Shown here in pieces: positions 2,655 through 49,723 of a DNA stretch of 64,000 nucleotides. The notes beneath the pieces were generated by a model that saw only the letters and a program-made list of their open reading frames with translations, was not told where the DNA came from and searched no databases. The stretch is from NCBI RefSeq assembly GCF_024223415.1, contig NZ_CP100500.1; one strand, given 5' to 3'. Within the stretch, counting starts at the first letter, position 1. Each line of letters starts with the position of its first letter. A program made the position numbers and the translations under genes. Source of the stretch: Escherichia coli. GTDB lineage: Bacteria > Pseudomonadota > Gammaproteobacteria > Enterobacterales > Enterobacteriaceae.

Positions 2655-3149
2655 ATGAGCATGGTCGCAAGACCGGAAGCCGCCCCTGCACGGGACGATA
2701 TCCCCGACACCGACGACGGCGACGCCACCATCACCGCCGGGGCATTCTGGCCGGAGATTGTGCTGCGGGAGCTGCGCCTTGCAGTACGCCTGCCGGGCCG
2801 CATCACCTCCACACGTCTGGCGCACGTTGCCACGGGAGCCGTGGCTCACGTCACGCGGGAGCTGGAAGAGTGGCAGAAGACGCAGTCTGCCGCAGGGTTC
2901 AGCATCCTCGCAGAAGTGCCTGCCGCCACCATCAACGGTGAGAGCGTCAACGTATGGCATTACCGCAACGCCGTCTACAGCGCCACCCGCGCCCTGATTC
3001 TGGAACGCTGGCGGGATGTGGACACCACTGATAAAGGGAACCGCCGGGCTGACGCACTGGATGAGCAGATGGAAGACTTATGGCGCGATGTGCGCTGGTC
3101 CGTGGCAGATATTCTGGGTCGCCCCCGTCTTTTTGCGGAGCTGGTGTGA
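2655..3149 (+). CDS. Head completion/stabilisation protein (P2 gpL-like)
   Basis: 164-aa ORF; position after terminase small subunit; stop overlaps next start (TGATG). Confidence 0.55.
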   Translation: MSMVARPEAAPARDDIPDTDDGDATITAGAFWPEIVLRELRLAVRLPGRITSTRLAHVATGAVAHVTRELEEWQKTQSAAGFSILAEVPAATINGESVNVWHYRNAVYSATRALILERWRDVDTTDKGNRRADALDEQMEDLWRDVRWSVADILGRPRLFAELV

Positions 3150-3346
3150 TGAAAGTGAGGGCACTCCAGGGGGATACCGTCGATTTACTCTGTTTCCGGC
3201 ACTACGGCACCACGCAGGGGGTGACCGCACAGGTACTTGATGCCAATCCCGGGCTCTGCCGCCAGGTAATTCTGGAAGCGGGACAGGAGGTGGAGATGCC
3301 GGAGCCGGAAAAGAAACAGCAACGCGAAAAGGTAAAGCTATGGTGA
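3149..3346 (+). CDS. Tail protein X (P2 gpX-like, LysM-like)
   Basis: 65-aa ORF starting MKVRALQGDTVDLLCFRHYG at ATG 3149, overlapping previous stop. Confidence 0.5.
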   Translation: MKVRALQGDTVDLLCFRHYGTTQGVTAQVLDANPGLCRQVILEAGQEVEMPEPEKKQQREKVKLW

Positions 3347-3630
3347 CGGGATTTTTTCAGCGCGTCAGTGACTGGATCACCTTCTGGGCGTCAGTGACGG
3401 CAACAACCATTGGTGTTATGACCATCAGCGAAAAAATTGCGCTGGCCGGGCTGCTTCTGGGGTCACTTTCCGCCATCCATGCCTGGTGCCACCGCAGGCG
3501 TACGGAGCAGGCAATGAAGCGCCGCAATGACCTTATCGCCCGCATCCTGGCACGTTCAGAAAACCGCGAGCTTCACGACGGTGAGAGACGGGCACTGGAC
3601 AGCGTGAGACAGGACGGAGAAGAGCGGTGA
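3340..3630 (+). CDS. Holin, two predicted transmembrane helices
   Basis: 96 aa with two hydrophobic stretches (WITFWASVTATTIGVMTI, IALAGLLLGSLSAIHAW) and charged C-tail; directly upstream of endolysin. Confidence 0.5.
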   Translation: MVTGFFQRVSDWITFWASVTATTIGVMTISEKIALAGLLLGSLSAIHAWCHRRRTEQAMKRRNDLIARILARSENRELHDGERRALDSVRQDGEER

Positions 3631-4172
3631 AACTGCCGGTAAAACGTTATGCGGTGGCGGCCATTGTGGCGCTGGGCGTCTCCATGGCACCCGGTGAACT
3701 GAGAACCTCACGGGAAGCACAGATAAAAATCGCCACCCGGGAAGAGTGCCGGGCGACACCGTACCGTGATATTGCAGGAGTAATGACCGTGGGATGTGGT
3801 TCAACAGGGGGCGTGGAGAACCGGGTTTACGGAGAAAAGGAGGTGGCCCGCCGCTGGGTGAATGACCTGCGGCACGCGGAAAACTGTATCAACCAGAACT
3901 TCAGCGGTGCCGCCATGCCCCAGTCCGCCTTTGAGGCGATGACCGACGCGGCGTTCAACGTCGGCTGTACCGGCCTGATGTGGTACCGGGACAGGAGCGG
4001 CAACCGGCAGCGCACCACCATCTGGAAGCACGCACAGGCGCACCGCTGGGTGGCGATGTGCGGGAGACTGACCGATTTTGTCAACAGTGGCGGACGCCGC
4101 TCACAGGGGCTGGTTAACCGCCGGGAGGAGTTCAGACAGTGGTGTCTTCGCGACACGGGAGGCAGCACATGA
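3627..4172 (+). CDS. SAR-type endolysin (T4/P1 Lyz-like lysozyme with N-terminal signal-anchor)
   Basis: N-terminal weakly hydrophobic Ala/Gly-rich segment MKLPVKRYAVAAIVALGVSMAPG followed by lysozyme-like motifs (EEC..TPYRD...CINQNF...AFNVGC...DFVNSGG); resembles P1 Lyz rather than P2 gpK. Confidence 0.65.
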   Translation: MKLPVKRYAVAAIVALGVSMAPGELRTSREAQIKIATREECRATPYRDIAGVMTVGCGSTGGVENRVYGEKEVARRWVNDLRHAENCINQNFSGAAMPQSAFEAMTDAAFNVGCTGLMWYRDRSGNRQRTTIWKHAQAHRWVAMCGRLTDFVNSGGRRSQGLVNRREEFRQWCLRDTGGST

Positions 4173-4576
4173 GACCGGTTTACGCCGTGATTGTTGCCCT
4201 CATGGTGACCACCCTGACGGCGGCGGCCATGTGGCAGTCATACCGGCTGGGGCGTGCCGGTGAGGCACGTGACGCCGCAGAGCAGCAGCTGGGCGAATAC
4301 AGCCGGGCGCTGCGTGAGTCCTCCGCCGTTATCAGCGATGCCTCCGCCGTACTGCATGAGGTGATGACGCAGCGACAGAAAAGGGCACAGGAAGGAGAAG
4401 TCAGACGTGAACAGCTTCGCGAAATTGCTGCGACGGATGAGTGCGCCGGCACTCTTCCTGACCACCGTTTTACTGACCGGCTGCGCGAACACACGGAACG
4501 CGCCACTGCCCGCGCCCTCCTTCCGGTTCATTCCGGCGGGACTGACGACGGGAACACGGCCCCCGCCCTTCCCTGA
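4169..4576 (+). CDS. i-spanin (Rz/LysB-like)
   Basis: ATG at 4169 with GGGAGG upstream; N-terminal TM helix then charged coiled-coil-like region; contains embedded out-of-frame lipoprotein ORF. Confidence 0.5.
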   Translation: MRPVYAVIVALMVTTLTAAAMWQSYRLGRAGEARDAAEQQLGEYSRALRESSAVISDASAVLHEVMTQRQKRAQEGEVRREQLREIAATDECAGTLPDHRFTDRLREHTERATARALLPVHSGGTDDGNTAPALP

Positions 4577-6772: not shown

Positions 6773-7669
6773 ATGCCTTCCGTTGACCTGTCACAGTTAC
6801 CGGAACCGGCCATCATCGCGCAGCCGGATTTTGAGTCCATCCTGGCAGACATTAAAACCATGATGGTGAGCTCCTTCCCGGAAGAATACCGCGCCGCCGT
6901 CACCCGTGCCCTTACTCTGGAATCCGAGCCATTGAACATCATTTCCCAGGCCATGGCCTTTCGTGAAATGCTGCTTCGCCAGCGCATCAATGAAGCCGCC
7001 CGCGCCTGCATGCTCAGCCACAGCCGGGGCAGTGACCTGGACAATCTGGCCGCCAACAACAACACCCGCCGCCTGGTCATTCATCCGGCCACTGATACCA
7101 CGGAAGCAGTGATGGAAAGCGACACATCGCTGCGTCTGCGTGCCCAGTCAGCCTGGGACGGCCTGAGTGTGGCCGGACCGTCCGGCGCGTATGAGTATTT
7201 TGCCCGGAGCGCAAGCGGTCTTGTCCGTGATGCGCGCGCCATCAGCCCGTCACCGGCCACAGTCACCGTCTCCATCCTGTCAGCAGACGGTGACGGCACC
7301 GCCGGTGAGGCGTTACTGAACACGGTGCGCACCGCCCTGAATGCCGAGAACGTGCGCCCGGTTGCCGACCGCCTGACTGTGCAGAGTGCTACCATCGTGA
7401 ACTGGGTAATGGAAGCGAAGCTGTATTTTTATCCAGGGCCGGAGTCTGAACCCATGCTTGCGGCCGCTGACGCCGCTTTCCGTGCATGGCTGGCAGACCA
7501 GGGCCGTATCGGTCAGGACGTGGCCCTGTCAGCCATCACTGCAGCGCTGCATGTTCACGGTGTCCAGCGCGTTGAGGTCATAAAACCCACGCAGAACATC
7601 ACCATCAGTGACACTCAGGCAGCCAGATGTACCACATTCAGCATCAGCGAAGGAGGACGCAATGAGTGA
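6773..7669 (+). CDS. Baseplate assembly protein J (P2 gpJ-like)
   Basis: 298-aa ORF following W. Confidence 0.7.
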   Translation: MPSVDLSQLPEPAIIAQPDFESILADIKTMMVSSFPEEYRAAVTRALTLESEPLNIISQAMAFREMLLRQRINEAARACMLSHSRGSDLDNLAANNNTRRLVIHPATDTTEAVMESDTSLRLRAQSAWDGLSVAGPSGAYEYFARSASGLVRDARAISPSPATVTVSILSADGDGTAGEALLNTVRTALNAENVRPVADRLTVQSATIVNWVMEAKLYFYPGPESEPMLAAADAAFRAWLADQGRIGQDVALSAITAALHVHGVQRVEVIKPTQNITISDTQAARCTTFSISEGGRNE

Positions 7670-8225
7670 CAGGAAAAAAACAGACAGCGCACAGCACAGT
7701 ACATCACTGCTTCCACCGTCCGCAGGGCCATTCATGCGCGCCACAGAGGCGACAGGAGTACGCATCAGTACCATACCGGTGGACGCCGACACCCTGTGGT
7801 CGCCGGACCGCTGCCCTGCTCACCTCCTGCCCTACCTTGCATGGGCATGTTCCGTTGACAGCTGGGACCGCAACTGGCCGGAAGAGACCAGGCGACAGGT
7901 GATTCGGGACGCATGGATGATACATCGCCACAAAGGGACCATCAGTGCACTCCGCCGCATCGTTGAACCACTGGGCTACCTCATCCGTGTATCAGAATGG
8001 TGGGAGTTTGACGGCTCGCCCGGGACCTTCACCATTGAGATTGGCACACTTGAAACCGGAGTAAGTGAAGAGCTGCATGAAGAAATGGAGCGTCTGATTG
8101 CCGATGCGCGCCCCGTCAGCCGCCACCTCGTGGGGCTTAGTATCATCCAGGAAATACACGGTGCCATTTACGCCGCTGCCGCAGGTTACGACGGCGACAT
8201 CATCACCATTTACCCGGAAGACTGA
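7662..8225 (+). CDS. Baseplate/tail protein I (P2 gpI-like)
   Basis: ATG 7662 with AGGAGGA upstream, overlaps J stop; 187 aa. Confidence 0.65.
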   Translation: MSDRKKTDSAQHSTSLLPPSAGPFMRATEATGVRISTIPVDADTLWSPDRCPAHLLPYLAWACSVDSWDRNWPEETRRQVIRDAWMIHRHKGTISALRRIVEPLGYLIRVSEWWEFDGSPGTFTIEIGTLETGVSEELHEEMERLIADARPVSRHLVGLSIIQEIHGAIYAAAAGYDGDIITIYPED

Positions 8226-36031: not shown

Positions 36032-36736
36032 ATGCGCCTGGTTCAGCTTTCTCGCCATTCAATAGCCTTCCCTTCCCCGGAAGGCGCATTACGTGAGCCT
36101 AACGGCCTGCTGGCACTTGGGGGCGATCTTAGCCCTGCGCGCCTGTTAATGGCTTACCAGCGTGGTATTTTTCCGTGGTTTTCTCCAGGCGACCCCATCC
36201 TCTGGTGGTCGCCAGATCCCCGCGCGGTGCTATGGCCAGAATCACTGCATATCAGCCGTAGTATGAAGCGATTTCATAAACGCTCGCCCTATCGTGTCAC
36301 GATGAATTACGCTTTTGGTCAGGTCATTGAAGGCTGTGCCAGCGATCGCGAAGAAGGAACCTGGATCACGCGTGGCGTGGTCGAAGCCTACCATCGCCTT
36401 CACGAACTCGGTCATGCCCACTCCATTGAAGTCTGGCGTGAAGATGAGCTTGTCGGCGGTATGTACGGCGTGGCCCAGGGAACGCTATTTTGTGGCGAGT
36501 CCATGTTCAGCCGGATGGAAAATGCGTCTAAAACGGCGCTTCTGGTATTCTGTGAGGAATTTATCGGTCATGGCGGTAAGCTTATCGACTGCCAGGTCCT
36601 TAACGATCACACAGCATCGCTTGGTGCCTGCGAAATTCCCCGCCGGGATTACCTTAATTATCTCAATCAAATGCGCCTCGGACGATTGCCGAATAATTTC
36701 TGGGTACCACGATGCTTGTTTTCACCACAAGAATGA
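36032..36736 (+). CDS. aat: Leucyl/phenylalanyl-tRNA-protein transferase
   Basis: 234 aa, matches E. coli Aat N-terminus [20 protein letters not shown]. Confidence 0.93.
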
Positions 36737-37017
36737 ATGTTTTCGGCACATTTCTCCCCAGAGTGTTATAATTGCGGTCGCAGAGTTGGTTACGCTCATT
36801 ACCCCGCTGCCGATAAGGAATTTTTCGCGTCAGGTAACGCCCATCGTTTATCTCACCGCTCCCTTATACGTTGCGCTTTTGGTGCGGCTTAGCCGTGTGT
36901 TTTCGGAGTAATGTGCCGAACCTGTTTGTTGCGATTTAGCGCGCAAATCTTTACTTATTTACAGAACTTCGGCATTATCTTGCCGGTTCAAATTACGGTA
37001 GTGATACCCCAGAGGAT

Positions 37018-37239
<222 letters not shown>

Positions 37240-37492
37240 TTGTTTTACCGCCTGATGGGCGAAGAGAAAGAACGAGTAAAAGGTCGGTTTAACCGGCCTT
37301 TTTATTTTGTGATATGTAGGAAGTACTTTGGAAGTATAAGTCCATAACTTGTCTCGATGTAGATATACTGCACAACTTGTTTACAGTATGAGCAAACAAT
37401 AATTATCATTAAAATTCTTCTTGACCGTTTTACTCCAACTCCCTATAGTAGCGCCCCGTTGCCCCCCATGAGGTCAGGCAACAAAACAATTT

Positions 37493-37580
37493 GGTGAGGT
37501 GTCCGAGTGGCTGAAGGAGCACGCCTGGAAAGTGTGTATACGGCAACGTATCGGGGGTTCGAATCCCCCCCTCACCGCCA
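37493..37580 (+). tRNA. serW: tRNA-Ser (anticodon GGA)
   Basis: 88-nt GGTGAGGTGTCCGAGTGGCTGAAGGAGCACGCCTGGAAAGTGTG...GGTTCGAATCCCCCCCTCACCGCCA with long variable arm; downstream of infA as for serW. Confidence 0.93.
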
Positions 37581-42262: not shown

Positions 42263-43081
42263 TCAGCGCATGCTCTCCAGCAGCGTTTCTGCCATCACCC
42301 ACAATGCGCGGTTGAGTTTTATATCGGTATCAATGCTGTGAATGGCCCGGGTATGGATACGTTTTCCTTTTGCACTGCGACCGGAAATCCCGCCTTTCAG
42401 CATATTCTCCTGGATGGTCTGATAAGCACTCCACAGGTCCTTACCGTAATCCTCCCGGCGTCGTGGTGTCAGAATGTCGGCGGTGGTGACGGGCTGATGT
42501 TCGTCACCATAACGGTAAGTCAGTGCCGCCTGTGCCAGCGCCTGGCGTGCCGGTGGCGGCAGGACCAGCGACTGCATGGCATCACGCTTCTCCTCTATCC
42601 GGTCAAACACGCCCACCACCTCGTAAGCCCCTTCAATGACTCTGTCCACCACATTTCCCCGGTGCGGAACACGCACTTCCCCCAGAGACTGACCGCAGAC
42701 GCATCCGTTCTGGCAGACGAACCTGAAGTAACCCGGCAGCATCTGGTAGCTGGAGGTACCGTCATGAGAGTTGAGCAGAATAATTTCAGGGACATGTTGT
42801 CCGTTTATCTCCCCGTCACGGCGCAGACGCAGCATGTGTTTGGTATACCCCCGGCGGCCCGGGTCCCGCACGCGGGTCTGGCAGGCAAAGAAGGGCTGAA
42901 AGCCTTCCCGCTGCAGGCTTTCCAGCACGGTAATGGTGGGGATGTATGTATAGTTCCGGCTCCGGGAGGTGTGCTTATCTTCCCCGAAAATCCCGGGCAC
43001 ATGGTGCATCAGTTCTTCATGTGTCAGCGGACGGTCACGGCGTATCTGGTTCGCATAACCAAAACGACTGGCTAATCGCAT
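42263..43081 (-). CDS. DUF932-family protein (YfjQ-like)
   Basis: 272 aa; N-terminus MRLASRFG...PLTHEELMHHVP and overall pattern recalled for YfjQ family. Confidence 0.5.
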   Translation of the reverse strand: MRLASRFGYANQIRRDRPLTHEELMHHVPGIFGEDKHTSRSRNYTYIPTITVLESLQREGFQPFFACQTRVRDPGRRGYTKHMLRLRRDGEINGQHVPEIILLNSHDGTSSYQMLPGYFRFVCQNGCVCGQSLGEVRVPHRGNVVDRVIEGAYEVVGVFDRIEEKRDAMQSLVLPPPARQALAQAALTYRYGDEHQPVTTADILTPRRREDYGKDLWSAYQTIQENMLKGGISGRSAKGKRIHTRAIHSIDTDIKLNRALWVMAETLLESMR

Positions 43082-43124
43082 ACTTTGCTCCTTATCAGTG
43101 GTTAAGACTGACTGACGTAATCAA

Positions 43125-43157
43125 TGAAAAAGCCGCGTCTCCCGGAGAAGACGCGGC
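43125..43157 (-). terminator. Intrinsic terminator upstream of DUF932 gene
   Basis: Minus strand gccgcgtct tctccggg agacgcggc followed by ttttt. Confidence 0.4.
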
Positions 43158-43605
43158 CTGATGGATGAAATGAATGAGGGTTTACCGAAGTCCTTCAGCA
43201 TTGAGGTGAAGCCGCCGGAAATGTGTTCCCGGGTCATCTTCGATAAATACATTGCGGTAAGCTGTTATGGCAGAAACCGCCTGCACGTGTGAGAAAGGTC
43301 TTCGCTTAAGACGTACTCTGTGTGATCCGGTATTTCTGGTTTCTCCTGATTAATAGCCTCTGCCACAAAGTGTGGAAGAGGCTGAATCATGGTATTTACT
43401 TCTTTCATCATGGTGGTATTCCGGTGTATTAACCGGGATCTGATTCCGGAAAATAAGGAATAAACGTAAAGGAGCAGAATGCTCGTTATGCCAGACACGC
43501 AGGGGGTAATGCCTCTTCCGGGTGGTTAACCATATTGCCGGGATGTGATGCTTCATATTCCATAACAGAGCGTTGCCTGATGATACTGACTACCAGTGGT
43601 TTGAT

Positions 43606-44060
43606 TCACATATTGGTCGCTGCCCGTTGCTGTACGCCGGCGGCGAAAATGATCTCCAGAGCATTCTGATCGATAACACGGGCCAGATTCGCGTTCAGAT
43701 TTTCAGTTTCATTTTCGGTCAGCAGGAAACTGACGGCAAGCCACGTCACCTGCTCCTGAATCATGGCAGGAATTTTGATGCGCTCCTCTTCAGCCAGAGT
43801 ACCGGCAATTTTTCCTGATACCACTGCAATCATTCCTCCCGGAACGCCGCCCGCCAGCGAATATGAAATAACCGGGGTATGCGTTCAGTGATACAGCCAG
43901 CCAGTAAAGCCGGACCGGACAGACACAGCAATATGAGTCCTGCCAGCACAGACGCTGTGCTGGTTAATGCTCTGAACAAAAAGCGAAGAATGGCAAATCC
44001 TGCGATAAGCAGGATCAGCACGCCGACTATCTGTAACATAGTCCCCCTGATAAATATCAT
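43606..44060 (-). pseudogene. YeeR-like membrane protein remnant split into two overlapping ORFs
   Basis: Two 75-aa ORFs in different frames overlapping by 4 nt downstream of antigen 43. Confidence 0.3.
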
Positions 44061-44159
44061 GTTATTGTTAATGCCAGCGAATGTGGCGTTGAATATCCGT
44101 TGCGCCGGTCCGGGTCCCGATCATGATGACCGGGACCACAAAGAGGCAATGCAGAATTG

Positions 44160-47100
44160 TCAGAAAGTCACATTCAGCGTGGCCTGACCGTTATAACCTT
44201 CAGCGCTGCTGCCGCTGACGCTGCGGGCATAACCGGCCTGAACACCCAGGGTGATATTTTCCCGGACACGGGCTTCCAGTCCGGCCTGCAGGTCCAGTGA
44301 TGTGCCATTCTGTGACGGTGAGAACATCATGTTACTGCCGGCTGCGGCTGTACCCATGCTCATGTCTCCCCGGGAGCTGAAGGTGCGGATAACAGAAGGC
44401 TGTACCCACCCGTTCACCGGCAGTTCACTCACACTGTGTCTGGCACTGCCGCGCAGGGTGTCACGGGATGAGCTGCCTTCACCAAAGCTCATATCGTTGT
44501 GGCTGCCCAGACGGAAACCGGCACGCACATGTTGTGCACTGCCATGCCCGAACTTCACATAACCGGCGTTATCCTGGCCGTCATCCAGGGAGAGTCCCTG
44601 CCAGGTGTACTGCAGTTGTGGCTCCAGCATCAGATGGTCAGTGATACTGAAGGGCAGACCGGTTTCCAGTGAGCCCAGCCAGCCCCGGCCCCGGGCGCGG
44701 AAGTCGTTACTGTCCGATGACGCTTTCATGCTGTGGCGGGTTTCCTGTGCCACAAGGTCAGCCCACAGGCCGGAGGACGTGTGTACCAGATTCAGGTATC
44801 CGCCCAGGCTGCCGGCATCATCCCGGACCGTGCCGGCGCGGGAGCCGTTATCATCCCTGACATCAACGGCAGAATGACCCGCAGCACCATATACCCCTGC
44901 GGTCACAGACATACCGGCAACCTCTGTTCTCAGCAGGTCCCCCTCCAGACGGACGAAGCCATAGCTGCCGCTGCTTTCCGGCGTGGCCCCACGGACAATA
45001 CCGCCGTTGTTACCGTGACCGAGATGACCGCCCTGAATGCTGAGGCGGACGCTGTTATTTTCACCGTTCACATCGCTCTGATGGCTGCGGGAGCCTGCCA
45101 GAATCCGGTCGTAGTCCATCCCCTGCGTCAGCATGGAGGCGTACAGGGGGACTTCCGCGCGATAACGCGTTTCACTGCGCAGATACCAGCTCTGGTCACC
45201 GTCACGGGTCAGGGTGTAGTCATACACCCCGGCCTGCAGCGGGTTGCCCTGAACAAAAGCGCCTTCCTCCGTGGTGGCACCATTAATGGCCTCCACCACC
45301 TGAATGCCCTTACCGGTGGTCGCCAGCCCCGACGCACTGTTGCCGGCGTTCACCAGGTTCAGGGTGGTTTTCCCGGTGGCACTGCCACCGTCAATCACCA
45401 GCCTGTCGGCATTGTGCTGTGCCAGGTCAGGGCGGACACGCAGGGTGATGCTGCCGTTCTGTCCCCGGAGATTTTTCACCGTCAGGGTGGCCGGCGTGAA
45501 GGCTCCGCTGCGGGTGCTGACGAAGTTAATCTTCCCGGCATGACGGAGTTCATCCACCACCGATTTCACCGTGGCGTTGTCCGGAATGTTCCAGGTGGCA
45601 CCGGAGGTGAGGGTGACATCCGTGGGGTCAATGGCACCGGTCAGCACGGTGCTGCCGGTCAGGCTCAGGGTGGTACCGCGCCGGGCAATGATATCCGTGG
45701 TGACGGTACTGTCGGCCAGCGTCAGTGCGCCTTCGTTAAGGCTGACGGCGTTCCGGGTGAGAGTGGTGTTGCTGACAGTGAGTGTGCCGCTTCCTGATTT
45801 TTCCACCCTGCCGTTACCGGTGAGTACGCCCCCCTGCAGAAGCGCATCGCCTTCACGGGTGACCAGGGTGCCGTCATTCACCGTCTTCCCGGAGAGGGTC
45901 AGCGTGGCACCGTTATTCAGCGTGGTGGTGCCGGTCAGGGTTCCGCCCTGCGCGGTGAGCTGCCCGCCGTTCACGGTGGTGTCACGGGCGCTGTCGCCGG
46001 CCTTCAGGGTAAAGGCGCTTCCCTTGCCCAGCGCGAGTCCTGAGGCGTGTCCGCTGCCGATACTGAAGGCACCGCCACCGTCATACTGACCGCTGACAGT
46101 GGCACCGGAATCGGCCAGCAGCATACCGCCTCTGCCCATGGATACCGTGGTGGCTGTACCACCGGTCAGGACTGCCAGCGTGCCCCCGTCATCCACCCGG
46201 GTGTCAGTGGCCGTGTGACCGTTCAGTACATCAAGACGACCGCCTGACTCCAGCAGCACGCCGTCAGCCTTTCCGTCTGCCACGGAAAAGTGGCCCGCAC
46301 GGTTTGTGCCGGAGACGGTGGCTGCCGTACCGGTAACCAGCGCACCGCCCGTATTCTGGGTGACGGCGGTGGCCTTACCACCGGCATTCACCTGCAGCTT
46401 TCCTTTCTGATTGATGGTGGTATTCTCAGCCACCGCTCCCGTCTTCACCACCTGCCAGCCACCGTCGTTAATCACCGTGTTCTGTGCCACACCGCCCTGA
46501 TGAACATACTGGTTGCCGCCGTTAAGGGTGGTGGACAGAGCGTGACCATGTACCGACTGGTCGCCACCGGCCTGTATGGTGGTTTCTCCTGCCATACCTT
46601 CGCCCGCAATGACCTGCCGCCCGTTTCTGTTCACGGTGGTGGAGAGTGCCATCCCTGCCACGAGCTGACCGGTGGCATCGTTATCAGAGTCCGGCCCGCC
46701 TTCAGCGCCGGTATTCACAACGGTGTCGGTTGCCACTGCGCCGGGTTTAACGGTCTGATAACCGTCGCGGTTAATGACAGTACCGACAGCCCTGCCTCCC
46801 TGATGTACCCACTGCTCACCACCGTTCAGGGTGGTGTTCACCGACTGCCCCCGGAGGCTCTGCCCCCCGCCGGCATGGATAACGGTGTCAGTGGCTGTAC
46901 CGCCCGTCATCACAACCTGACGACCATTTGCGGTGACCGTGGTGTTGCTGGCTGTCCCGCCATTATCTATCCACTGCCCACCGTTGTTTTCCTCACTGTC
47001 CGGCCCCAGCTCCAGCCCGGTACTAATGGTCATGCCACTGGCCGTACCGAAGACAATCTGGTTGTCGTGATTTGTCAGCGTACCGCCATTCACTGTATCT

Positions 47101-47279
47101 CCTGCCTGTACAGCGCTGTCAGCAGCCGGCGCGGGCGCTGACATGACTGCAGCAAGGGACAGTGCGGCAGCCACGCCCGCACGCTTCCCCCGCGTGCGGG
47201 CCAGTTCAGAGGCCACCGCGAAGGTGCCCGTGACGTGATTCCATACCAGCCGGTAACTGGTGTTCAGATGTCGCTTCAT
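44160..47279 (-). CDS. flu: Antigen 43 (Flu/Cah) self-associating autotransporter
   Basis: 1039 aa; signal peptide, Thr/Gly-rich beta-helix repeats, C-terminal beta-barrel ending QATLNVTF. Confidence 0.9.
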   Translation of the reverse strand: MKRHLNTSYRLVWNHVTGTFAVASELARTRGKRAGVAAALSLAAVMSAPAPAADSAVQAGDTVNGGTLTNHDNQIVFGTASGMTISTGLELGPDSEENNGGQWIDNGGTASNTTVTANGRQVVMTGGTATDTVIHAGGGQSLRGQSVNTTLNGGEQWVHQGGRAVGTVINRDGYQTVKPGAVATDTVVNTGAEGGPDSDNDATGQLVAGMALSTTVNRNGRQVIAGEGMAGETTIQAGGDQSVHGHALSTTLNGGNQYVHQGGVAQNTVINDGGWQVVKTGAVAENTTINQKGKLQVNAGGKATAVTQNTGGALVTGTAATVSGTNRAGHFSVADGKADGVLLESGGRLDVLNGHTATDTRVDDGGTLAVLTGGTATTVSMGRGGMLLADSGATVSGQYDGGGAFSIGSGHASGLALGKGSAFTLKAGDSARDTTVNGGQLTAQGGTLTGTTTLNNGATLTLSGKTVNDGTLVTREGDALLQGGVLTGNGRVEKSGSGTLTVSNTTLTRNAVSLNEGALTLADSTVTTDIIARRGTTLSLTGSTVLTGAIDPTDVTLTSGATWNIPDNATVKSVVDELRHAGKINFVSTRSGAFTPATLTVKNLRGQNGSITLRVRPDLAQHNADRLVIDGGSATGKTTLNLVNAGNSASGLATTGKGIQVVEAINGATTEEGAFVQGNPLQAGVYDYTLTRDGDQSWYLRSETRYRAEVPLYASMLTQGMDYDRILAGSRSHQSDVNGENNSVRLSIQGGHLGHGNNGGIVRGATPESSGSYGFVRLEGDLLRTEVAGMSVTAGVYGAAGHSAVDVRDDNGSRAGTVRDDAGSLGGYLNLVHTSSGLWADLVAQETRHSMKASSDSNDFRARGRGWLGSLETGLPFSITDHLMLEPQLQYTWQGLSLDDGQDNAGYVKFGHGSAQHVRAGFRLGSHNDMSFGEGSSSRDTLRGSARHSVSELPVNGWVQPSVIRTFSSRGDMSMGTAAAGSNMMFSPSQNGTSLDLQAGLEARVRENITLGVQAGYARSVSGSSAEGYNGQATLNVTF

Positions 47280-47281
47280 TA
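47274..47281. repeat. Target-site duplication CTTCATTA (copy at antigen 43 start codon)
   Basis: Identical 8 bp flank both IS ends (also 49724-49731). Confidence 0.8.
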
Positions 47282-47318
47282 GTAAGCGTACAGCGAGAGC
47301 CGTATTGACGGGGATGTG

Positions 47319-48857
47319 TTATTCAGCTGGCAGTGCTATGCGCCACGGAAGCAGTTCGCTGACCCGGTTGACCGGCCAGTCTGCTATGACGCCAAGCACA
47401 TGGCGAAGGTAGCTTTCTGGATCCACGTCATTCAGTTTGCACGTCCCTATCAGGCTGTACAGTAGCGCTCCCCGCTCACCACCATGGCCAGAGCCGAAGA
47501 ACAGGAAGTTTTTACGACCCAGACTTACCGCCCGCAGGGCATTTTCAGCGATGTTGTTGTCGATTTCCACCCAGCCATCGTTCGCATAGTACGTCAGTGC
47601 CGGCCACTGGTTAAGTGCGTACGCGAACGCCTTCGCCAACTCTGAGTGTCGCGACAGGGTCTTCATCTTTTCACGCAACCAGCTTTCCAGGGATTTCAAC
47701 AGCGGTTTCGTTTTTCGCTGACGTTCAGCAAGCCGCTGCTCTGCCGGCATTCCCCTTATATCCGCCTCTATGGCGTACAACTGACCGATCTGCTCCAGGG
47801 CTTCTTCCGTCAGTGCTGACGGGATGCGGACGTGCACATCGTGGATCTTTCGGCGGGCATGAGCCCAGCAGGCAGCTTCCGTTATCCCACCATTGCGATA
47901 CAGCTCGTTGAACCCGGCGTACGCATCCGCTTGCAGCACACCGCTGAAGCAAGCAAGATGAGTCTGCGGATGGATGCCTTTTCTGTCCGGGCTGTAAGCG
48001 AACCACACTGCAGGTGCCAACGCTGACCCGGCATTGCGGTCATCACGAACATACGCCCACAACCGCCCGGTCTTCGTCTTCTTATTACCCGGCATCAGTA
48101 CCTGGACCGGGGTATCATCGGCATGGAGTTTGCCGTCAGTCATGACATAGCCATGAAGCGCCTCTTCCAGCGGAGACAGCAGCCGGCAGCATGCATCCAC
48201 CCAGCCCGACAGCAGTGAACGGCTCAGCTCCACACCTTGCCGGCCGTATATTTCTGACTGGCGATACAGCGGGGTGTGCTCTGCATACTTCGAGGTCAGC
48301 ACGCGGGCCAGCAGCCCCGGTCCGGCGATACCCCGCTCGATGGGCCGCGAAGGTGCAGGTGCCTGCACGATGGCATCGCACTGAGTACAGGCATGTTTTT
48401 CCCGTACCGTCCGGATAACCCGGAAGGCGCTACGCATCAACTCCAGCTGTTCGGCGGTATCCTCGCCCAGATAGCTCAGTGAACCGCCGCAGTTCGGGCA
48501 GCACGGCGCCGCAGGCAACAGTCGCTTTTCGTCACGGGGTAGTGATTCAGGGAACGGCTTACGGATGCGGGTCTGACGCAACGGACGCTGTACTGCCGGG
48601 TCATACACCCTACCAGTCAGCGTATCGCTCTCTTTCTGAAGCTGGTTCAGATCGGCTTCCATTTGTGCGATACGGCGGGAGACTTTTTCGGAACGACTGC
48701 CGAAGTTCATCCGGCGGAGTTTATCCAGCTGCGCCTGCAGATGGTCTATTTCGCGCTCCCGGTTGCTCAGCTTTTCCTGCAGGGCGTGGATCAGCGCTTC
48801 CTGTTCGGCCAGGCGCTGTTTCAGCAGGAAGATGTCGTCAGAAGAGATGTCGTTCAT
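47319..48857 (-). CDS. IS66-family transposase (TnpC/orfC)
   Basis: 512 aa with leucine zipper N-terminus, CxxC zinc motif and conserved DDE-like core. Confidence 0.9.
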
Positions 48858-48906
48858 AAGCCCGTATTTTACCGGGCTTATTCTGTGACAACCAGGATAA
48901 AGAGAT

Positions 48907-49254
48907 TTACAGCATGGTCAGGGAGGTCAGCAGCCGCTTAGGCTGTCGCCAGTCGATACCTTCCAGCAGCATCGCCAGCTGCGCCTGTGTAAGGAACACT
49001 TTGCCATCACGGGCTGACGGCCAGGCGAAGCGCCCACGCTCCAGCCGTTTGGTCAGGAGGCACAGTCCGTCACCGGTGGACCACAGCAGTTTAACCTGAC
49101 TGCCGCTGCGGCCCCGGAAAATGAAAACATGGCCGGACATGGGATCGTCTTTCAGCGCCGTCTGTACTTTCGCAGCCAGGCCGTTGAAGCCATTTCTCAT
49201 ATCGGTGATACCGGCAACCAGCCAAATTTTGGTCCCGGAAGGTAAAGGGATCAT
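48907..49254 (-). CDS. IS66 Orf2 (TnpB) accessory protein
   Basis: 115 aa [31 protein letters not shown]... Confidence 0.85.
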
Positions 49255-49652
49255 CGCTTCAGTTCCTGTATCAGCAGAGTCAGGAGCTTTTCGCTGACAT
49301 TGCCATTGAAGCGGAGCGTCCCGTGCCGGAACGTTACCTCACAGCTGATACTGAGGGTTTCCGGGTCCTCTGCGAGCGATTCTGGCTGTTCGGCAGCTGC
49401 ATCGAGAGTCACAGGAAGTAGCTGGGGGCTCTCTGAAGAAGGTAATAGCAGCTTTCCCTCGCGCCATTGTTGTCGCCATTTGAACAACAGATTGGCGTTA
49501 ATGCCATTTTCAAGAGCAAGTTTTGAGATGGATATCCCGGGTTCACAGGAGGCAGCAACGAGCTGCTGTTTAAATTCGGGAGGATAATTAGGGCAGCCTT
49601 TTCGCCTGCCGGGAGTCACATTTTTCTGCATATCTGACACTTTGGTTCCCAC
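49251..49652 (-). CDS. IS66 Orf1 (TnpA) HTH accessory protein
   Basis: 133 aa; overlaps orf2 start (ATGA). Confidence 0.8.
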   Translation of the reverse strand: MGTKVSDMQKNVTPGRRKGCPNYPPEFKQQLVAASCEPGISISKLALENGINANLLFKWRQQWREGKLLLPSSESPQLLPVTLDAAAEQPESLAEDPETLSISCEVTFRHGTLRFNGNVSEKLLTLLIQELKR

Positions 49653-49723
49653 TACTTATTTGGTGGACACCACTTTGTCTAATTCGTCAGATTCTGACCA
49701 GACGGTTCAGGCTGTACGCTTAC

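Follow-up and report, generated by a model that had tools for sequence, protein, structure and literature searches.

Two short ORFs between flu and the DUF932 gene

The window, by which we mean the whole 64,000-nucleotide stretch of Escherichia coli DNA analyzed here (contig NZ_CP100500.1), carries on its minus strand an Ag43 autotransporter gene, flu (agn43), the ORF of which ends 100 bp upstream of the first of two short ORFs. In the mechanical ORF list, these measure 76 aa (ORF1, 43830..44060) and 75 aa (ORF2, 43606..43833); they lie in different frames and have positions 43830 to 43833 in common, where the minus-strand sequence is ATGA (plus strand, TCAT). The initial annotation had described two 75-aa ORFs in different frames with an ATGA overlap, which is accurate except for the length of the first. 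Downstream of ORF2, only short ORFs are found, up to a minus-strand gene (42263..43081) assigned to DUF932 (Pfam E value, 6e-52). The sizes of ORF1 and ORF2 are not significant by themselves, with 144 ORFs of at least 30 aa present in 12 kb; rather, the two are meaningful because they are homologous to yeeR (blastn E values, 1e-138 and 6e-140). The upstream part of the locus is composed as follows, in the direction of transcription.

47283..49723, minus strand: ISEc8 (IS66 family), 2,441 bp, with inverted repeats GTAAGCGTACAG...CTGTACGCTTAC; identified by annotation and homology
44160..47279, minus strand: flu/agn43 (Ag43 autotransporter), intact 1039-aa ORF, first gene of the former agn43-yeeR-irmA operon
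43830..44060, minus strand: ORF1, 5' remnant of yeeR, consisting of codons 1 to 62 (MLQIVG...HIRW), seven out-of-frame codons (RAAFREE), and TGA
43606..43833, minus strand: ORF2, its ATG corresponding to the codon for Met-723, internal to the ancestral protein (GGMIASAVSGK), and its stop a TTA>TGA nonsense mutation at 43608-43606

The start of ORF1 that is homologous to yeeR is the ATG at 44039 (MLQIVG..., the same start as in K-12 and as called by PGAP), from which the product would count 69 aa. Relative to K-12, a 2-nt deletion within 44040-44060 removes the stop codon of a tiny upstream ORF and thereby fuses the ATG of that ORF (44060) in frame with yeeR, which is why the mechanical ORF is 76 rather than 69 aa long. 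An SD-like sequence, GGGGG, is located 5 to 6 nt upstream of the ATG at 44039. ORF1 is identical to K-12 YeeR at 55 of 62 residues and contains two hydrophobic 19-mers (KD of >2), in residues 1 to 25 and 28 to 50. As for ORF2, its stop site reads ATGTGAATC in the window versus ATGTTAATC in intact alleles, and the translation beyond the stop is still homologous to the family (IKPLVVSIIRQR...) as far as the ancestral stop codon at 43486; at its other end, a G>A change created the sequence GGAGG just before the ATG. Scans of both ORFs with Pfam, NCBIfam, and PADLOC matched no family, and a search of the minus strand from 43000 to 44300 revealed no sigma-70-like promoter. The flu-yeeR intergenic region contains a 25-nt near-perfect palindrome (GGTCCCGGTCATCATGATCGGGACC, 44113-44137) that is conserved in K-12 and O104:H4 and that, being devoid of a T-run, does not represent a classical terminator.

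The assignment of the flu ORF to Ag43 follows the annotation of homologous loci. ISEc8 sits exactly at the flu start codon, with an 8-bp target duplication (TAATGAAG, including the ATG) at 49724-49731 and 47275-47282; in line with such an insertion, homology to the region upstream of flu in the O104:H4 locus (L004) stops at its position 1265 and resumes at 1258. While flu keeps its start codon, it loses its SD sequence (GGGAG, approximately 49737-49741) and an upstream region with three GATC sites (49914, 49927, and 49945), which, by analogy, would correspond to the OxyR/Dam phase-variation switch. Since ISEc8 separates flu from both, the yeeR remnant, too, is cut off from the native promoter region and SD. 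Judging from this arrangement, Ag43 is probably silent or dependent on read-through from the IS. Four islands from complete genomes (L001, L010, L011, and L012), otherwise 98 to 99.5% identical to the window, contain a C>T nonsense mutation in flu codon 291 (nt 871) and one other substitution; the nonsense mutation is absent from the window. Because flu is intact here and broken in these four relatives, we consider the decay of the island to be less advanced in the window than in them.

The stretch of approximately 500 bp of small ORFs downstream of ORF2, which the initial annotation had also pointed out, is indeed present but does not consist of yeeR debris only. It is made up of a 120-nt yeeR tail past the nonsense codon, the scar of an irmA deletion, a decayed DUF905 gene, and a hairpin, so that remnants of the yeeR tail, irmA, and the DUF905 gene are all represented.

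43375..43412, minus strand: irmA deletion scar, CCATGATTCA joined to GCCTCT; the left part corresponds to L004 position 7086 onward (irmA start, 7093) and the right part to L004 position ~7565
43182..43402, minus strand: decayed DUF905 (aec70-like) gene, with its start changed from ATG to ATA, the frame shifted by 1 nt, and about 80 nt missing at the 3' end
43130..43159, minus strand: terminator-like hairpin (13 pairs and a T-run) that separates the DUF905 remnant from the DUF932 gene

The gene irmA, the interleukin-receptor-mimic gene of uropathogenic E. coli (UPEC), was removed by a net 473-bp deletion; all that is left of it, the first 8 nt and the ribosome-binding region, now adjoins sequence from upstream of the DUF905 gene. 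The junction lies in a short repeat, CATG(A/C)TTCA, that occurs at the translation starts of both genes. The DUF905 remnant is 79% identical to positions 7554-7769 of the O104:H4 locus (27 of 37 residues identical by tblastn), and PGAP calls only a 34-aa fragment in it (43182-43286). The sequence of the hairpin is conserved in the O104:H4 and ST131 loci, and the hairpin is likely the end of the former operon.

Intact yeeR and the extent of the deletion

Intact yeeR genes of 2,517 nt (838 aa) were identified in O104:H4 (L004:4501-7017, annotated as "membrane protein") and in isolate AF20 ("YeeR family protein") by a DNA search with K-12 yeeR combined with an exhaustive search of representatives. 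These coding sequences overturned the notion that no intact full-length gene exists, which stemmed from a search with the 123-aa C-terminal remnant that returned only E. coli-type fragments of up to 204 aa. K-12 yeeR itself turned out to be inadequate as a reference; it matches only the 5' piece (first ~197 nt, 90%), K-12 homology in the window being confined to this piece, the intergenic region, and the 3' end of flu, and is itself truncated at its 3' end. The match for ORF2 lies instead at the 3' end of a longer pseudogene, resembling yeeR, from an ST131 genome.

A HMMER search with the reconstructed 838-aa protein yielded 1,187 representatives of clusters at 50% identity (E of ≤1e-3), many of them 820 to 850 aa long and aligned end to end. 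Because intact long genes exist and many family members align end to end, the ancestral state is one long gene. The family alignment displays four invariant cysteines and a GGQGHGFAAE...NGADR motif, and the core (residues ~400 to 815) was also found in architectures of 500 to 1200 aa. When the 838-aa protein was compared with Pfam, nothing scored above threshold (one weak C19orf12 match, E of 0.005); searches of NCBIfam and, by sequence, of the PDB gave no match, and a PDC-M09B match in PADLOC (E of 1.6e-5) was too weak to build on. The AF2 model (mean pLDDT, 79) contains N- and C-terminal helical regions, and a Foldseek search of the PDB with this model returned nothing at an E value of ≤0.001, with weak, local, winged-helix-like matches below that level. 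YeeR has been described as uncharacterized (PMC4807369). As a widespread family (>1,000 clusters) for which Pfam and NCBIfam hold no model, it merits separate study.

Aligning the window to the full-length gene, as the initial annotation had proposed, located the missing part. Window positions 44200-43844 align to nt -160 to 197 of the O104:H4 gene (90.3% identity over 360 nt, intergenic region included; E of 1e-138), the flu-yeeR region of K-12 aligning likewise, and positions 43851-43462 align to nt 2149 to 2542 (87.6%; E of 6e-140). The window retains nt 1 to ~190 and ~2149 to 2517 of the 2,517-nt gene (575 nt) and lacks a net 1,960 bp, i.e., 653 codons plus 1 nt (codons ~63 to 716), or 78% of the coding sequence. 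The size of the deletion was derived from two exact anchors, CATATTCGCTGG and GGAATGATTGC, which are separated by 1,989 nt in the O104:H4 gene and by 29 nt in the window; with a reference that is 10 to 13% divergent, the breakpoints are defined to within about ±8 nt. No intact yeeR allele >90% identical to the remnants was found in the complete-genome set, where nine genomes matched at ≥99%, two at 90 to 95% (both left out of inspection), and others at 80 to 90%.

43844..43853, minus strand: deletion junction; gene nt about 190 to 2148 are missing, and the flanking parts are joined out of frame
43486..43857, minus strand: yeeR 3' remnant in the ancestral frame, about codons 716 to 838, lacking 3 bp (in frame) and interrupted by a TGA

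The flanks of the junction have an imperfect repeat in common (GCTGGCTGGCAGGCGT versus TGTGGTTGGCGGTGTT), which suggests a microhomology-mediated deletion. Since the length of the deletion is not a multiple of 3, the frame changes between ORF1 and ORF2. Of the 36 residues that are invariant among 38 aligned family members, 34 fall in the deleted part (positions 333 to 713); correspondingly, the conserved core (residues ~330 to 715, with the four cysteines, GHGFAAE, and NGADR) is absent from the window, and no single continuous ORF of ~820 to 850 aa is present there. The dN/dS ratio, calculated from small counts, is 0.26 to 0.64 for the remnants, compared with 0.10 to 0.18 for intact yeeR pairs and 0.08 for the neighboring DUF932 gene; this suggests a relaxed constraint on the remnants, with substitutions too few for the ratio to be decisive.

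Distribution of the junction and location of the island

A 121-nt probe spanning the junction was found in 9 of 5,426 complete E. coli genomes, in every case at 100% identity. In the same set, ~2,180 genomes contain the K-12-type 5' 1.5 kb and ~2,180 contain the 3' segment; in the loci whose annotation was inspected, the two segments lie ~2 kb apart within one ORF. The two-ORF arrangement, the conservation of which the initial annotation had named as grounds for refuting decay, is thus confined to these nine genomes of the complete set. An identical junction is also present in three draft genomes (L007 to L009; GCA_012006245, GCA_012293625, and GCA_014942765), which have no nonsense codon (leaving a 123-aa ORF, P0001), keep a frameshifted irmA, and have an intact DUF905 gene. 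Because these genomes share the junction without the nonsense mutation and with irmA and the DUF905 gene, the deletion in yeeR would have preceded the other lesions. In the same three loci (positions 2657-4400), the sequence changes from window-like to O104:H4-like about 55 codons past the junction, a mosaic indicating that recombination between island variants may have taken place.

The island in the window is located at tRNA-Ser serW, on the infA-aat-cydCD side (window positions 36032-37580 comprise aat through the GGA tRNA-Ser), and not at the CP4-44 site. Strain 673 (L011) shares this serW/infA-aat location, and the same island variant (99.5% identical) is found beside serX/ghrA in strains 135, MS 119-7, and TUM1886 (L001, L010, and L012). 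This distribution implies that the island may have moved or recombined between two identical tRNA-Ser(GGA) genes, serW and serX.

A pseudogene in a decaying operon

We are highly confident that ORF1 and ORF2 derive from the two ends of a single yeeR gene, encoding 838 residues, that was reduced to a nonfunctional remnant by the 1,960-bp deletion. Ancestrally, yeeR would have been the second gene of an agn43(flu)-yeeR-irmA operon on a CP4-44-like island at tRNA-Ser serW. A single deletion between two short imperfect repeats inside the gene would then have taken out codons ~63 to 716 of 838, with the ends joined out of frame. Translation from 44039 would now run through 62 authentic codons, encoding two predicted transmembrane helices, and seven nonsense codons before reaching a TGA, which results from reading the ancestral ATG-ATT (Met723-Ile724) out of frame; the same ATG is the mechanical start of ORF2. 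Since the junction shifts the frame across the ancestral ATG-ATT, the ATGA overlap is best regarded as an accident and not as a signal of translational coupling. ORF2, in turn, is the old C-terminal frame read from an internal methionine and shortened by the later TTA>TGA mutation, and the loss of irmA, the breakage of the DUF905 gene, and the insertion of ISEc8, cutting the operon off from its promoter, would be subsequent steps of decay. Each of the five annotated copies that were inspected has the two pieces flagged as pseudogenes by PGAP ("missing C-terminus" and "internal stop; missing N-terminus"). Homology to an intact gene elsewhere is combined here with disabling lesions, and the arrangement is not conserved as separate genes; we infer that no functional product is made.

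A different course of decay had been put forward in the initial annotation, namely, that a full-size yeeR was broken into short ORFs by frameshifts, i.e., by small indels and scattered deletions. The gene is certainly a pseudogene with its ORFs in different frames, and small lesions do exist (the 3-bp deletion, the 2-nt upstream deletion, and one nonsense mutation). However, the alignment refutes this explanation, which we regard as very unlikely to hold in any form: just 575 of 2,517 nt are present, the 1,960 bp are missing as one block between two well-aligned flanks, and it is the deletion junction, rather than a small indel, that changes the frame. The main lesion, then, is a single internal deletion, of which the frame change is a by-product due to its length, and the nonsense mutation is a separate event. 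Confusion by the assembler is a negligible concern; although E. coli genomes carry several paralogous copies of the island (median of 2 places, up to 13), from which a mis-assembly could arise, the same junction was recovered in nine complete genomes that had been produced independently, as well as in three draft assemblies.

One might also imagine that the yeeR fragments gave rise to something new, a translationally coupled module of a two-helix membrane peptide (ORF1) and a 75-aa soluble partner (ORF2). The ATGA overlap at 43830-43833, the SD-like GGAGG directly before the ORF2 ATG, the retained SD of ORF1, and the occurrence of the same sequence in nine genomes of differing source, at two different tRNA-Ser sites, could all be read that way. 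Yet the ancestral ATGATT codons already contained both the ATG and the TGA, the distance of 1 nt between GGAGG and the ATG is too short for normal initiation, and the end of ORF2 is a fresh nonsense mutation that is missing in the three draft genomes with the same junction. With a prevalence of 0.17%, with the operon promoter and SD displaced by ISEc8, and with neither ORF matching a family while both map within one protein, such a module strikes us as extremely improbable. A more modest variant holds that the 69-residue, two-helix peptide may still be translated, perhaps with reinitiation of ORF2 at the ATGA, and may have acquired a role as a small membrane protein. The retention of the SD-like sequence and start codon of ORF1 would permit synthesis of this peptide if the region were transcribed, and such a role would account for the sequence identity of the remnant between islands at the serW and serX sites. 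The 100% identity of the remnant across eight genomes and a dN/dS ratio that is not ~1 would likewise be compatible with residual constraint, but recent common ancestry accounts equally well for both. Altogether, we see only a very slight chance that the peptide has such a role.

The yeeR remnant is therefore an ordinary pseudogene, representing a type of variation that is already known, and the decay extends to the entire operon around it. In terms of annotation logic, the correction is that the locus holds one gene remnant, neither two genes nor a simple frameshift. Neither YeeR nor IrmA can be produced from this copy of the island, in which the Ag43 gene has been separated from what is taken to be its phase-variable promoter; the relevance of these observations is limited to the typing of Ag43/IrmA expression or of vaccine-antigen presence in this lineage.

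Compared with full-length YeeR (838 aa; WP_001387066 from O104:H4 and WP_001545737), which is encoded in the same place directly downstream of agn43, the window has homologous sequence for the first 62 and last ~122 codons, at about 90% and 88% nucleotide identity, respectively. Codons ~63 to 716, present in the full-length gene and lacking in the window, specify most of the N-terminal membrane region past the first two helices, predicted winged-helix-like repeats, the four-cysteine motif, and the GHGFAAE...NGADR core; moreover, the parts retained in the window are out of frame with each other, and the 3' part contains a nonsense codon. The initial annotation had taken CP4-44 of K-12 as its point of comparison, where a large gene does follow flu (yeeR, b2001; 510 aa). 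Its recognition of a degraded yeeR-like membrane gene after flu is borne out by homology, but the reference was imperfect, since K-12 YeeR is itself truncated and the island of the window is at serW. As in the window, the K-12 copy after flu is damaged and irmA is lost. In K-12, however, a 3' deletion takes the last ~330 codons together with irmA, the DUF905, DUF932, and antirestriction genes, and the start of yeeS, leaving a 510-aa ORF, whereas the deletion in the window is internal, leaves 62 plus ~122 codons, and is followed downstream by intact DUF932, antirestriction, and radC genes. The yeeR pseudogene of the ST131/EC958 type (SCU-112 locus, HHJ29_RS04090) is another independently degraded copy downstream of agn43; unlike the window, it lacks the 5' ~1.4 kb, contains an internal stop, and keeps irmA and an intact DUF905 gene.

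Published work has described the flu-yeeR region as a site of frequent insertions and deletions and K-12 yeeR as truncated (PMC4807369, PMC9431211, and PMC6480617); for agn43-yeeR-irmA, it was likewise noted that elements are often gained and lost, with disruption of its components (PMC4807369). With the agn43-yeeR-irmA operon (Moriel et al. 2016, PMC4807369), the window shares the gene order and the island module. In contrast to the intact operon, agn43 is the only one of the three genes that is intact here, split off by ISEc8 from its SD and from the putative OxyR/Dam promoter; yeeR is a remnant, and irmA is gone.
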